Positions 30,157 to 37,095 are shown, counted from the first letter of the stretch. The stretch: 64,000 nucleotides of DNA from an uncultured bacterium (GCA_949285875.1 CASDZZ010000011.1:2289-66288), one strand, 5' to 3'. The notes: generated by a model from the sequence alone, not told the origin. Numbers and translations are program-made.

Positions 30157-30231
30157 GCAGGTGTAGTACAACGGCTAGTACGCGGCCTTGCCAAGGCTGA
30201 GACGTGGGTTCGATTCCCATCACTTGCTCCA
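30157..30231 (+). tRNA. tRNA-Gly (anticodon GCC); its 3' end is the attL of the downstream island
   Basis: Acceptor gcaggtg/cacttgc (G4:U69 wobble), anticodon stem cggcc/ggctg with loop uuGCCaa, TPsiC gggttcgattccc, encoded CCA. Confidence 0.85.
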
Positions 30232-30342
30232 GTGACGTTTCTGTTCGAACTTTTACAGTTTGAACTTAACATATAATCAATCCGTTCGGGTTGATTTTTT
30301 TGTGTTTACAAAAGAATTAACTAGGAAAGGACGGTGTTAATT

Positions 30343-30618
30343 ATGATAAAGTTTACTACCCAAGAGTTAGAAATGGAAAAAAGTTTGAAACAACGTATTG
30401 AGTTTATTTGTGAGTTCTGCCACGTTACTCCTACCATTACTAATGGAAGTATCAAAAGAATTAACAATACAAACTTAAACTACATTGAGCCTCATAAAAT
30501 CGTTGTAAATAATACTACTTTTCTAGCCTTTAACTATTCTACTGATATTTATGTAGGTAATCTAAATAGAAAGATTAAACTCGTAGAATTAGAAGATTAT
30601 ATCAAGAATATGGCTTAA
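30343..30618 (+). CDS. hypothetical protein
   Basis: ORF 30334-30618 at the left end of the element; no motif recognised. Confidence 0.4.
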   Translation: MIKFTTQELEMEKSLKQRIEFICEFCHVTPTITNGSIKRINNTNLNYIEPHKIVVNNTTFLAFNYSTDIYVGNLNRKIKLVELEDYIKNMA

Positions 30619-30825
30619 TCATTATTATTTAAACGACAGATATTGACTTTTTCTCTTAAAAACTTTATTATATTAGGCAAAACAAGGGGTTATTTACCTG
30701 CCAAATCTTTTTAATGGGGGTTATTGATTTGGAAGTACACAATTTATTAATATCAAAGTTAAAGAGATAAAGGTAGTAGATATTTCTAGGACTTTTATCT
30801 CTTTTTTTAGAAAGGATGGGTGCTA

Positions 30826-32760
30826 ATGAATAATGAGAAAAAATTATGTGGACTTTATATGAGAGTTAGTACGGAAGATCAAGCACGTGAGGGCTTTAGT
30901 CTTCCAGAGCAAAGAGAACGATTAGAACAATTTTGTAAGTTCAAAAATTATGAAATAGTAGATTATTATGAAGATGCTGGAATAAGTGCCAAAACAGGCA
31001 ATTTAAGACCTGAATTTGAAAGATTAAAAGAAGATATTAAGAGTAAAAAAATCAATACTATCGTGGCTTTAAAACTAGATAGAATAACAAGAAGTATCTT
31101 TGACTGGGAAAAGTTAATGACTTTTTTAGAAGAAAATAATGCCTACCTAGATTGTGCTAATGATGAAATAAATACAACTAATGCTAATGGTAAAATGATT
31201 TCAAGACTACTTATGAGTGTTAGCCAAAATGAAATTGAAAGAACATCAGAGAGAACAAAAATCGGTTTAGCAGGAGCAATTAAACAAGGACATATTCCAA
31301 GTCAAGCACCACTAGGTTATAAACACGAAGATAAAAAATTAGTAATCGATTACTCTACTAAAGATATTGTTACAAGAATATTTAATCTATATTATGAGGG
31401 AAACTCTTATCAAACTATATCTAATATTTTAAATGAAGAAAAAGTTTTAGGTAAAACTAACTGGCGAGATTCTTCTATTACTGCCATACTTGAAAATGAA
31501 GTTTATAAAGGCGACTATGTTCATGGTAAAAGAACAAAGCACCCTACTTACTATCAAGATGTTGTCGAGCCTATTGTATCAAAAGAATTATGGGAAGAAT
31601 GCCAAGTTCAAAAGAAAAAAAACTCACGAAGTTATCAAAGAACTTTAACTTATTTATTTTTACAAAAACTTACCTGTCCTAAATGTGGTCGCCTAATGGG
31701 TGGAAAAGCAACGAAAAAGAAAAATGGAAATGTTTATTATTACTATTATTGTAGCGACTGCAAAATCAATTTAAAGGAAAATGTGATTAGTGAATATTTT
31801 GATAATTTCGTTCAAGAGTTAGTAGAATATGATAGTGTTGTTAATCAATTCTTCTTACCTATGATAAAGCAAAAGTTTGATGAACCAAAAGAACAACTAG
31901 AAAAAGAATTGTTGAAACAAAACAATAAACTAGAAAGAATTAGAAAAGCATATATTGAGGGTGCATTTGATTTAGATGTCTATAATGAAGAAAAGAAAAT
32001 TGTTGAAACTGCTATTGATAAATTAAATGCCGAACTAGAAGATACCGAAAATTGTGAAAACTTTAATTTTACTCCACAAGATATTTTACTAAAACGTGAT
32101 ATTGATTATATTAATAGAGTTAAATTAGCAAGTGAATATAAAGCAAGAACGAAAACATGGAAAGATTACACTAGAGAAGAAAAAGCCGATTTAATTATGA
32201 GATATGTAGATGAAATAAAACTAAAACAAAAAAATGATTTTGTCTATGTTGATGAAATATTATTTAGAGAAAGTATTTGTAAACCTTGTAATGAATTATT
32301 TGATAAAGGTTATATTGACATTAAAACTCCTGCTATATTTGGCAATTTAGTTGGAGAGTTAAGATTTAGTAATTACTTGCCTGAAGAAGAAGTTGGAAAA
32401 CACATTATGAGATTAAGACAATATTATGATGTCGGTTTTGAAGAAGCAATTTACTATGTAGAAGATAGAGTTTTCTATTTCGATTTTCTAAGAGATGACA
32501 GAGCCATAATAAGAGTATTCCCACTAGAAGATTATTGTAAAATAGATCCCGATATAAAACTGAAAGAACAACGATATGGAATTATTTATATAAGAGGTAA
32601 AGATGAGTTTCAAATGCAAGATATAGACTCTGCATTTGATTATATACCTGATGAAAGTAATACTAGTGTAATTTATATGAAAGACCCTGTTCCTATTGAA
32701 ATTGGAGTAAAGCCTGTAAATATGGAAGTGCTAAACAATGATACTTCTAGTCAAGGGTAA
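30826..32760 (+). CDS. large serine recombinase (644 aa)
   Basis: [23 protein letters not shown] catalytic N-terminus, CPKCGR...CSDC zinc ribbon, coiled-coil region, long C-terminal extension. ATG 30826 lies behind AAGGATGG. Confidence 0.9.
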
Positions 32761-33133
32761 GTTTACTTACTTGTGAAACCCTTGACTAGAAATAATAATA
32801 AAAAATGGAAAAAGTTTAAAACAAAAAAGTTTACTTTTCTTGTTTTAAACTTATCTATAATAAAGATTTTTTGCTAACTTTTTTCTAAAAAAAGTTATAA
32901 CAAACGTGGCACGTTTTGTTGAACTTGGTTCAATGAAAGTGGCGATAGTTTGTTAAAGAGACTTATGTAATTTTGTTTTATTGTGGTAGCTTTAAAACAA
33001 TATGGAATAAGTCTAAAAGGGTTCTAGGGAATATCCCTAGCCCACAGGTTATTTTGATGTTTGCGTCAAAATACCTAGGGGGTTAAATATTTTGTCAGGG
33101 CCAAAATATATCTATGAAAGGAGGCAAAAATAA

Positions 33134-35603: not shown

Positions 35604-35685
35604 ATACAGAACTAATTTAGTTTCTGTTTTTTTATGGTATAATTATTTAAACAGAAGATAAATAGTAAGTTGTTGGAATGGAGGA

Positions 35686-36894
35686 ATGATTATGAAAAAA
35701 AGTCTAAAAATCACTTTAATTGTTATTGGAGTTTTGGTAGGAATAGTTGCAGTTGATACTTTACAGGCAAAGATATTTAATAATAGTCCCATATTGAAAG
35801 TAAGAGAAAATTTGAATGGTGGTAGAACAGCTTATATTGATAAGGGAGTATTTGTAAATCATTATTATTGTATTAATAAAGAAGAAAAAACATTGTTCAA
35901 AGGAGCAAAATATACTTGCCCTGAGTTAGAAGAAAATAAAGAGTCAACAAATGGTTTTGACAAAGAATTTTTACAATGTATAGAAAATGAGTTAGGTGGC
36001 TATCTTGTAACTGAAAAAGATAACTTAATAGAAATACCTTTAAGTGAAATCAAAAAAGATGATAATGAAAAAATTGAATATTATAAAGGAGTATATGCTA
36101 GTGAACATCCTGATAATATGTATGTAATAGTTTATCCTAAAAACGGGACTTATGAATCTAATATAATGAAAGGTTTTGATAAATATTTTTATGAAAATTT
36201 TTCTGTATATCAAACAAGTGAAAGTCCTTTTGGTCCTACAATTTATATTCACAATGCTAATAATGATGTTGATTTTAAAGATATCTTTAATAAATGTAAA
36301 ATTAATAGCAATTCTAATGATGGAAAATCAATGCCATCCAAAACTACAAACAAATTAAAAGATACTAAAAAAATAGTTATTAAAACTAATAATAAAGAAT
36401 TAGGAACAATAAGTAATGAAGATACATTAAATAAAATATTAAATACTATATCAAGTAGTAAACAATATGGAGATGCTTTTCTATGTGATGGTCATGGTTT
36501 TGATTTTGAAATGTATGATAAAAACAGCAAATTAATTGATACTATATATGTTTGGAGTGATGGTAATAGATTAATTCCAGCCAGTATAAGTGGTGAAGGA
36601 TGCTCTTATTATTCTATTTCAGATAACATTGATTTAAGAAAAATTATAGAAGATGAAACCGATTATATATTTTATAATATTTTAGATGTTAGAGATAATG
36701 ATAATCAAAAATTACAATTATTTTATAAAGATGATAAAAATAATTACTATTTAAAAAGTGAAAATACTAATGAAATATTAATTAAATTTATGCTAAACAA
36801 CCAAGTTATGACACTTAAATATGCTTTAGAAAATAACTATATTTCTGCTGAAAAAGTAGCTATTGACTACCCAAATATACTAATCAAAGAATAA
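35686..36894 (+). CDS. membrane-anchored or secreted protein of unknown function (element cargo)
   Basis: N-terminal signal anchor MKKSLKITLIVIGVLVGIVAV, followed by 380 aa without recognisable motifs. Confidence 0.6.
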   Translation: MIMKKSLKITLIVIGVLVGIVAVDTLQAKIFNNSPILKVRENLNGGRTAYIDKGVFVNHYYCINKEEKTLFKGAKYTCPELEENKESTNGFDKEFLQCIENELGGYLVTEKDNLIEIPLSEIKKDDNEKIEYYKGVYASEHPDNMYVIVYPKNGTYESNIMKGFDKYFYENFSVYQTSESPFGPTIYIHNANNDVDFKDIFNKCKINSNSNDGKSMPSKTTNKLKDTKKIVIKTNNKELGTISNEDTLNKILNTISSSKQYGDAFLCDGHGFDFEMYDKNSKLIDTIYVWSDGNRLIPASISGEGCSYYSISDNIDLRKIIEDETDYIFYNILDVRDNDNQKLQLFYKDDKNNYYLKSENTNEILIKFMLNNQVMTLKYALENNYISAEKVAIDYPNILIKE

Positions 36895-37036
36895 TTCAAA
36901 TTACAATTTATCAAAAAGATTATAAAAATTAAATAAAGCATATTCCATAAATAGCAAAAACATGATATATTATTAGTATCAACGGAAGATTATATGTACT
37001 CTTTCGTTATTGGAAAAGAGTTGTAAATAACTACGA

Positions 37037-37047
37037 CACTCGCTCCA
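37037..37047. repeat. attR: 10/11 copy of the tRNA-Gly 3' end (cactcgctcca)
   Basis: Matches 30221-30231 except T to C at the position pairing with G4 of the acceptor stem. Confidence 0.6.
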
Positions 37048-37057
37048 TTTGAATACA

Positions 37058-37095
37058 ACTTACGGACTGTAAAAAGTTCGTAAGTTTTTATTTTG
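37058..37095 (+). terminator. probable original terminator of the tRNA-Cys/Gly operon, displaced by the island
   Basis: acttacgga-ctgtaaaaag-ttcgtaagt followed by a T-run, 10 nt after the tRNA 3'-end repeat. Confidence 0.6.

Follow-up and report, generated by a model that had tools for sequence, protein, structure and literature searches.

Within a 64,000-nt stretch of DNA from an uncultured bacterium (GCA_949285875.1 CASDZZ010000011.1:2289-66288), hereafter the window, on which all unlabeled coordinates are based, an intact tRNA-Gly(GCC) gene is directly followed by an element of about 6.8 kb that encodes a large serine recombinase (LSR) and a relaxase of the MobV (Mob_Pre) family. The window has a GC content of ~25% and contains GerA-type germination genes; we read the host as a spore-forming Firmicute, and homologues of a gene flanking the element are found in metagenome-assembled genomes (MAGs) labeled "Bacilli bacterium" or "Tenericutes bacterium." As detailed below, the segment 30232-37041, lying between two copies of the hexamer GCTCCA, is very probably a site-specific integrative and mobilizable element (IME), which was inserted by its LSR at the tRNA gene's 3' end and regenerates that gene. 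From left to right, the locus is organized as follows.

30074-30148: tRNA-Cys gene, just upstream of tRNA-Gly (ARAGORN, Rfam).
30157-30231, plus strand: intact tRNA-Gly(GCC) gene, the integration target, whose T-arm and acceptor 3' strand make up the B arm (ARAGORN; Rfam tRNA, 63.7 bits).
30226-30231, plus strand: core GCTCCA of the left attachment site (attL), tRNA positions 71-76, predicted to contain the crossover and preceded by a tRNA-derived T; common to all 85 left junctions of the family.
30232-30256, plus strand: P' arm GTGACGTTTCTGTTCGAACTTTTAC, a presumed LSR-binding half-site (first 29 nt 100% conserved; 75 metagenome loci).
30243-30303, plus strand: two element-borne hairpins, 30243-30265 and, terminator-like and followed by a T-run, 30275-30296 (terminator scan; ΔG -20.5 kcal/mol, z = -3.1).
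30343-30618, plus strand: conserved small open reading frame (ORF) of 91 aa with the motif TNL.YIEP, always found between the left arm and the LSR.
30761-30808, plus strand: 14-bp hairpin and T-run directly upstream of the LSR ribosome-binding site (ΔG -19.9 kcal/mol, z = -3.7; 0 of 200 shuffles as stable).
30826-32760, plus strand: LSR of 644 aa, apparently intact (Pfam, PHROG).
32905-33095, plus strand: conserved non-coding block with inverted repeats I2, I5 and I7, a candidate origin of transfer (oriT), with near-invariant stretches in four diverged family members.
33134-34478, plus strand: MobV (Mob_Pre) relaxase gene, frameshifted at ~33548 into ORFs of 147 and 316 aa (tblastn with intact homologues).
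34581-34928, minus strand: 115-aa ORF, cargo or regulator (ORF list; no significant family match in Pfam, PHROG or PADLOC).
34979-35233 and 35313-35603, plus strand: two XRE-type helix-turn-helix (HTH) regulators (Pfam HTH_3, 1.6e-13 and 5.7e-10).
35686-36894, plus strand: 402-aa cargo protein (no family match in Pfam, PHROG or PADLOC).
36926-37041, plus strand: conserved right end, with the P arm GTTGTAAATAACTACGACACTC at 37020-37041; in the metagenome scaffold L003 the corresponding end is 92% identical, the similarity ending at 37048.
37042-37047, plus strand: core GCTCCA of the right attachment site (attR), preceded by an element-derived C (sequence comparison).
37048-37094, plus strand: TTTGAATACAAC followed by a 12-bp hairpin and a T-run, most likely a cassette from the left end (P') of a second LSR family, of phage type (comparison with L002, L024, L026, L027 and L042).

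The last 11 nt of the tRNA-Gly gene, cacttgctcca (30221-30231), recur 6816 bp downstream as cactcgctcca (37037-37047), with a single mismatch, and these are the sole two matches in the whole window. Read from the sequence, the mismatch concerns the acceptor stem, in which the resident tRNA has a G4:U69 wobble while the distal copy would yield G4:C69. Both points had been made in an earlier reading of this DNA (the original prediction) and are borne out. An identical tRNA-Gly(GCC), T at position 69 included, is present in another contig (L001), and an Rfam scan of the window revealed nothing beyond the two tRNAs.

The boundaries of the element are delineated by a second copy in an ENA metagenome scaffold (L003), which encodes a 98%-identical LSR. 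L003 matches window positions 30186-33123 at 95% and 36926-37048 at 92% nucleotide identity, the breakpoints fall exactly at both GCTCCA cores, and the flanks differ. On the left lies the 3' half of a different tRNA-Gly(GCC) (9334-9379 in L003), from the anticodon arm to CCA and with compensatory changes in the T-stem, while the right end reads ...ACTACGGCACTC-GCTCCA and is followed by the left end of another LSR/TnpV/relaxase element. The surrounding region, with PcfJ, PcfK and DUF2958, resembles a conjugative element, and the truncated tRNA-Gly appears to be a portable landing pad carried by another mobile element. L003 is thus the opposite of a copy with other flanks and no tRNA-end repeat, since it ends at the same two cores. 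Relatives with an 83%-identical LSR (L004-L011) all begin with xxxxx-GCTCCA-GTGACGTTTCTGTTCGAACTTTT, and they are preceded either by tRNA-Gly(TCC) or by another LSR-MobV element, which then adjoins them with its right end.

A metagenome scan with the left arm GTGACGTTTCTGYTCGAAC returned 75 loci, many of them on contigs named "human gut metagenome," which together with the earlier loci gave 85 left junctions. Upstream of the core, these junctions show the following.

Complete tRNA-Gly(TCC): 18 of 85 junctions.
Complete tRNA-Gly(GCC): 10 of 85 junctions.
Complete tRNA-Gly(CCC): 7 of 85 junctions.
Complete tRNA-Thr(GGT): 1 of 85 junctions.
No complete tRNA, with tRNA fragments or the right ends of neighbors instead (tandem arrays): 47 of 85 junctions.
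Too little sequence to call: 2 of 85 junctions.

Complete tRNA-Gly genes, with all three anticodons, therefore stand at 35 of the 85 left junctions, and GCTCCA is the sole sequence common to all 85, whatever lies upstream. In the 20 elements (1.9-7.4 kb) for which both ends were found in one locus, the left end is invariably xxxxx-GCTCCA and the right end P arm-GCTCCA or a near-variant; the P arm itself recurs in 20 loci. That the tRNA genes could be part of the element was rejected, since upstream flanks and tRNA species differ among copies. Together with the L003 copy, the family junctions uphold what the original prediction had proposed, that is, tRNA-specific integration of a discrete ~6.8-kb element, bounded by the 3' end of tRNA-Gly and its repeat and leaving the tRNA intact. 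They also weigh on a different scenario, in which a low-specificity transposon resembling Tn4451 landed beside the tRNA gene by chance and the 11-nt repeat is coincidental. Such a transposon would have a similar LSR and MobV content, and the repeat alone is not significant. Nevertheless, 36 of the 85 junctions lie exactly at the CCA end of complete tRNA genes, all with GCTCCA, while DUF4368 is missing from the LSR, whose catalytic domain resembles that of TnpX only weakly (26.9 bits). Chance insertion, which the junction survey led us to reject, is thus extremely improbable.

Conservation is far stronger in the arms of the element than in its interior. Over its first 29 nt, the left arm matches that of relatives (L008) at 100%, where the adjoining DNA is ~70% identical, and conservation of the right arm GTTGTARATAACTACGRCAC extends from the window to L003 and L018-L023. 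As originally predicted, joining the arms gives an attP site, acgacact-cgctcc-agtgacgt, in which inverted-repeat arms surround a 6-bp spacer with 7/8 dyad symmetry (read from the sequence): the inner arms ACGACACT/AGTGACGT match at 7/8 positions, and there is an additional outer GTT..AA motif. Such a motif, GTT[CGT][GT][AT]A, is seen at a distance of 17-22 nt from the core: in the tRNA arms it corresponds to the T-loop GGTTCGATTCC, and it is also present in the P arms of other elements and, reverse-complemented, in the P' arm, which suggests that the LSR reads the T-arm of the tRNA. The core is preceded by T where the tRNA adjoins it and by C in the element's right arm, and this holds for the two independent insertions, in the window and in L003. 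One version of the acceptor mismatch is therefore element-borne, as had been anticipated, and this split would place the exchange 3' of that base and 5' of the first base of the arm, that is, inside GCTCCA.

The LSR, which carries the YMRVSTEDQ sequence near its N terminus, contains a Resolvase domain (PF00239, 9.5e-34, residues 12-158) and a Recombinase domain (PF07508, 9.1e-20), and it matches the PHROG 95 integrase (4e-107). The Zn_ribbon_recom score of 22.7 bits is below the 25.3-bit cut-off, and the CPKC...CSDC cysteines are visible in the translation. The protein has thousands of relatives, including 98%-identical ones of 644 aa, and its 90%-identity cluster comprises 986 members. The window encodes a second LSR of 520 aa (7090-8652, plus strand), with Resolvase, Recombinase and above-cut-off Zn_ribbon_recom domains, which is far from any tRNA.

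As for the rest of the gene content, the original prediction stands with respect to the 644-aa LSR, the MobV gene, the two XRE regulators, the hairpin preceding the LSR and the lack of conjugation and phage structural genes, while it overlooked the relaxase frameshift, the 91-aa ORF and the terminator-like hairpin 30275-30296. This hairpin starts 44 nt past tRNA-Gly, and the tRNA operon now appears to be terminated by the element's own hairpin, whatever the origin of 37048-37094. In five other module types, homologues of the small ORF, 24-73% identical, are found at the equivalent position. The small ORF has no match in Pfam, PHROG or PADLOC, a single-sequence AlphaFold model is of low confidence (pLDDT, a per-residue confidence score, of 62) and too poor for a fold search, and we consider it a candidate accessory or directionality factor. 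The hairpin at 30761-30808, with its stem extending to 30804, lies downstream of a promoter-like site (30643-30671) and ahead of the start codon of the LSR and is a possible transcriptional attenuator of LSR expression. Farther downstream, a non-coding block of ~370 nt separates the LSR from the relaxase gene. A domain search of the element ORFs identified no type IV secretion system (T4SS) gene, phage structural gene or tyrosine recombinase, and scans for cargo with PADLOC and PHROG returned generic HTH matches only. The N-terminal ~25 residues of the 402-aa protein are hydrophobic-looking (by eye from the translation), and its gene has relatives of ~78% nucleotide identity in three family loci (L091, L104 and L098).

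Five observations weigh against our interpretation or complicate it. First, the 11-mer alone is within chance, with at least two matches in 10 of 100 shuffles, so that its significance depends on the comparative data only. Second, the crossover dinucleotide is ambiguous, since the dyad center indicates CT while two family members, L062 and L072, indicate GC. In L062, attL is tRNA-Thr...GCTCCA and attR is ...GCACCA, a difference that bears on the place of strand exchange, and in L072 attR is ...GCTATA; for both, the best explanation is that exchange took place at GC, the first two bases. The L062 element (5551-5627 and 11396-11423 in that contig) is the one inserted at tRNA-Thr(GGT), and this insertion may have changed the discriminator base of tRNA-Thr from A to U. 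Third, the relaxase gene of the window copy is frameshifted: intact homologues of 463 aa (L003) and 460 aa (L004) align to it in two frames, and Mob_Pre (PF01076) matches its C-terminal fragment only. Self-mobilization of this copy is therefore doubtful, and its transfer would need a relaxase in trans. Split MobV genes were also seen in the 83% relatives L005-L007 (262 + 176 aa; 7094-8476 in L006), the gene being intact (460 aa) in L004, L008 and L009, which would make relaxase loss recurrent in the family.

The fourth and fifth observations concern excision, which is predicted to leave a repaired tRNA-Gly|TTTGAATAC site (...GATTCCCATCACTTGCTCCATTTGAATACAAC...) and to produce a circle with the junction ACTACGACACTCGCTCCAGTGACG (...AACTACGACACTCGCTCCAGTGACGTTTCTG...). 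Among the assemblies found, there was no empty site for the host species or a close relative; of the two matches to the original prediction's empty-site sequence, the one in L001 lies 27 nt from the end of its contig and the one in L002 is the attL of another element (see below). The circular junction had 0 matches in IMG/VR and metagenome contigs, and the right-arm pattern likewise had 0 matches in IMG/VR. Relatives that are syntenic upstream, via the bPH gene (P0216 and L028-L035), are so up to window position 29952 only and have no tRNA-Cys/tRNA-Gly there, a relative retrieved through EamA (P0126) shows no synteny, and searches for exact copies of the LSR and of the bPH protein encoded upstream gave no match.

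The only two other assemblies of the same species both break within the region, L012 inside the element and L013 exactly at attR. The latter, a Logan contig, ends at its position 6555, equivalent to window position 37045, at CCA|TTTGAATAC (CCA|TTTGAAT), an assembly-graph branch that could stem from coexisting junction variants in that sample. In a related species (L018, from P0124; EamA 84% identical), a decayed family remnant that has lost the LSR lies between tRNA-Gly(TCC) and EamA, with both arms recognizable. There (1222-2950 in L018), and in L019-L023, the remnant is joined to the tRNA-Gly(TCC) of a Lys-Glu-Thr-Gly cluster that has T4SS genes as neighbors; the gene order in L018 breaks exactly at the tRNA/element junction, which may reflect a rearrangement between arrays.

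These results also bear on whether the window copy could be a fixed fossil, which integrated as described, is now unable to excise or transfer, and persists as a genomic island. The frameshifted relaxase, the similar splits in L005-L007, the abundance of decayed members in the family and the failure to detect a circular junction or an empty site in IMG/VR, metagenome contigs and assemblies are all what a fossil would show. Against this, the LSR ORF has its full length and shares 98% identity with relatives, both cores and both arms are intact, and the candidate oriT is conserved, so that excision and mobilization in trans would remain possible, while the L013 break exactly at CCA|TTTGAAT hints at junction heterogeneity in that sample. 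We consider a fossil possible, although clearly short of even chances, and favor an IME whose recombinase and attachment sites appear intact and whose relaxase is apparently broken.

The sequence immediately to the right of the element calls for a different interpretation than was first given. The original prediction identified a hairpin at ~37058-37095 as the native operon terminator, displaced by the insertion. The hairpin is real, with a 12-bp stem (37057-37086) and a T-run to 37094 (ΔG -16.1 kcal/mol, z = -4.5), whereas its displacement is called into question by the occurrence of the same cassette in phage contigs and at the left ends of other LSR elements. A scan of genomes for the empty-site pattern gave two matches. 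In L001, tRNA-Gly(GCC) is followed by TTTGAATACAAC and the hairpin, and the contig ends 27 nt after the match. In L002, tRNA-Gly(TCC) is followed by the same cassette and, after 95 nt, by a small ORF homologous to that of the window and then another LSR; the match to the predicted junction is hence the attL of another element, not an empty site. The window and L002 are 94.8% identical over 58 nt, ending at 37094, directly after the T-run. When IMG/VR was scanned for the cassette, four contigs were found, three of which (L024, L026 and L027, from three different datasets) share one layout: tail, holin and amidase genes; ...TCATCACCT-GCTCCA-TTTGAATACAAC-hairpin; a 92-aa ORF; and a 591-aa LSR. 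We read this junction as a phage attP next to its integrase. The cassette also opens a 4.6-kb LSR element in L042. Finally, it follows the right ends of E1-type elements, the class containing the window element, in 11 of 20 cases (14 of 20 with diverged variants), and there it begins deletion derivatives that keep the N terminus of the small ORF. The 47 nt from 37048 to 37094 are thus most likely an orphan left-end stub of a phage-type second element, which would make attR a chimeric site. In L002, which is a Bacilli MAG, the phage-type LSR has an in-frame TGA (~3797-3799) where the L024 homologue has TGG (Trp, ...NYDGFWLLNY...). This suggests that the host reads TGA as Trp and that the module may thus span hosts with different genetic codes; alternatively, the gene is a pseudogene.

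Could TTTGAATACAAC and the hairpin nevertheless be the native trailer and terminator of the tRNA-Cys/tRNA-Gly operon, a B' arm pushed 6.8 kb away and mimicked by phage-type elements? To the right of 37094 we found no third core or element-like sequence, and what comes after the cassette is host DNA of the usual kind, with EamA, nucleoside hydrolase and germination genes. In L001, moreover, an identical tRNA-Gly(GCC) directly precedes the cassette, and its presence after 11-14 of 20 E1-type right ends could mark a preferred B' half-site. However, phage DNA lies on both sides of the cassette in L024, L026 and L027, which makes it mobile DNA. Wherever the continuation after tRNA-Gly and cassette is readable (L002, L042 and L095), it is an LSR element or a ribosome-binding site and ORF, and similarity to three different continuations ends exactly after the T-run. 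The end of L001 27 nt past the match is as expected of an assembly break at a repeat, and no homologue of the cassette could be detected in L018, whose EamA is 84% identical. When the attR-EamA spacer was aligned globally with the equivalent spacer of L018, the score of 18 was no better than that of shuffles (16.9 ± 3.6), a result that cannot decide nativeness. A native terminator is in our view unlikely, and it keeps the weight it has because there is no unoccupied site to examine; the stub of a phage-type element remains our preferred reading of 37048-37094.

Decayed relatives are common in the family, as illustrated by the L018 remnant and by a recurrent 2.93-kb derivative of the window-type element. 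The latter was found in nine metagenome contigs (L040, L055, L056, L061, L065, L084, L090, L105 and L109), four of which are named human-gut. Its two arms and small ORF are retained, the LSR and the N terminus of the relaxase have been lost, and genes for an AAA ATPase and a GNAT protein are present, suggesting a non-autonomous form mobilized in trans. Arrays can also carry defense genes. In L005, L007 and L010 (~5800-7600 in L007), tRNA-Gly(TCC) is the site of a tandem in which a sister LSR-MobV element encodes a pair resembling a cyclic-oligonucleotide-based antiphage signaling system (CBASS), with a CD-NTase C-terminal domain and a Cap15 receiver, and arrays of this kind would act as defense islands.

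We propose the following mechanism. The attP site of the circular form would be ...GTTGTAAATAACTACGACACTC-GCTCCA-GTGACGTTTCTGTTCGAAC..., and the LSR would recognize the T-loop and T-stem (GGTTCGATTCC) together with a Gly-type acceptor end, a target that would explain the use of all three tRNA-Gly isoacceptors in many hosts. Strand exchange would take place inside GCTCCA (tRNA positions 71-76), and, since the left arm of the element opens with the same bases, tRNA-Gly would be rebuilt exactly, with at most its last four bases (U73-CCA) being element-derived. The element would also bring a new terminator for the tRNA operon. Integration would recreate a usable core at the right end, allowing further elements to accumulate in tandem; in the window, the right-hand neighbor would have decayed to a 47-nt stub consisting of the arm and terminator of a phage-type relative. 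Horizontal spread would rely on the MobV relaxase, the candidate oriT and the pore of a helper conjugative element, with the relaxase supplied in trans for the window copy.

What makes this locus of interest is mainly the family-level pattern, beyond the single copy. A very abundant LSR family would be doing the job of tyrosine integrases, that is, targeting the 3' end of a tRNA gene, regenerating it and accreting arrays, which would make tRNA-Gly loci cargo platforms in gut bacteria, CBASS defense genes in relatives included. More speculatively, and a little short of even chances in our judgment, the element may represent a large serine-integrase clade of which the literature searched has no description. 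This clade would always be accompanied by a ~90-aa partner acting as a directionality or targeting factor, would be shared by phages, by MobV IMEs and by TnpV/MOBP elements from Firmicutes and Mollicutes-like bacteria of the human gut, and would read the universal T-loop and the Gly acceptor end (GC-U73-CCA). If so, members could insert into any tRNA-Gly isoacceptor in very different hosts, possibly including those that read TGA as Trp, and build long recombining arrays of defense and cargo islands at tRNA-Gly. The family could also be of use for building broad-host-range integration tools, as its LSRs form a naturally occurring set directed at a 6-bp core and a T-arm found in essentially every bacterium. 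For the window itself, the gain is a precisely delimited island and an adjoining terminator re-read as probably element-derived.

In our full-text literature searches, we met with no account of LSRs that, as a family, have tRNA-Gly as their target. The window LSR is 25-37% identical to its best annotated plasmid and phage relatives, with 33-37% for the nearest of them. The parallel drawn by the original prediction with Tn4451/Tn4453 of Clostridium perfringens and Clostridioides difficile (TnpX and TnpZ) holds in part. Those elements are likewise ~6 kb long, are found in Firmicutes and encode one LSR and a MobV relaxase with an upstream oriT, without pore genes (PMC5704250). In contrast, Tn4451 integrates with low specificity and 2 bp of identity (PMC5704250) while the window element is specific for the 3' end of tRNA-Gly, and the window LSR is not TnpX-like: it lacks DUF4368, typical of the multi-targeting LSR clade (Durrant et al. 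2022, PMC10083194), and its catalytic domain scores 72.5 bits against the TP901-1 integrase, well above its TnpX score. The window element also has no catP, TnpV, TnpY or TnpW, and it carries the conserved ~91-aa ORF upstream of the LSR. The MobV relaxase, with its candidate oriT upstream, resembles TnpZ at the family level only, full-length homologues being found in L003 and L004. The resemblance to Tn4451 is thus functional only, and the window element does not belong to that family.

Phage LSRs such as those of TP901-1, A118, Bxb1 and phiC31 share the arrangement of catalytic and recombinase domains, probably followed by a zinc ribbon, and a short attP with apparent dyad symmetry, and the TP901-1 integrase has the closest catalytic domain among solved structures. 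In the phage contigs L024, L026 and L027, a sister module (small ORF, LSR and the same GCTCCA core) serves as the integrase module. Unlike the characterized phage LSRs, which mostly target protein-coding genes, the window LSR is on a mobilizable element and at a tRNA end. In a survey of LSRs, target sites were grouped by protein-coding genes only, and tRNA is absent from the main text (PMC10083194).

Tyrosine-integrase IMEs such as NBU1 and IME_Sag2603_tRNAlys offer many parallels, including insertion at a tRNA 3' end, regeneration of the gene from the element's copy, tandems formed via chimeric att sites and mobilization by a helper (PMC5704250), although their recombinase belongs to an unrelated family with a different chemistry and their identity segment is tens of nt, compared with 6 nt here. 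According to a 2017 review of IMEs, the site-specific serine-recombinase IMEs then known disrupt protein-coding genes, tRNA 3' ends being used by tyrosine integrases (PMC5704250). In a 2011 survey, integration of serine recombinases into tRNA genes was considered rare, the cited examples being the Ralstonia phage phiRSM (tRNA-Ser) and the actinomycete integrative and conjugative elements (AICEs) of Mycobacterium (tRNA-Leu), which also use a tRNA gene as attB (PMC3218068). These differ, by description, in recombinase clade, tRNA target, host and element type, one being an actinomycete conjugative element and the other a filamentous phage with a small resolvase-like enzyme.

The closest analogue in behavior appears to be the ssrA islands of Dehalococcoides (DsiB; PMC3146451). 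Those islands belong to another host phylum, have a 20-bp repeat and insert in the T-loop of ssrA rather than with a crossover at the acceptor end of tRNA-Gly, and they encode a CcrB-like large and a CcrA-like small recombinase without a relaxase. Like the window element, however, they are serine-recombinase islands located at the 3' end of a tRNA-like gene, with a short direct repeat of that end and one conserved mismatch between the gene copy and the repeat copies, and they form tandem arrays that include decayed, integrase-less members (PMC3146451).

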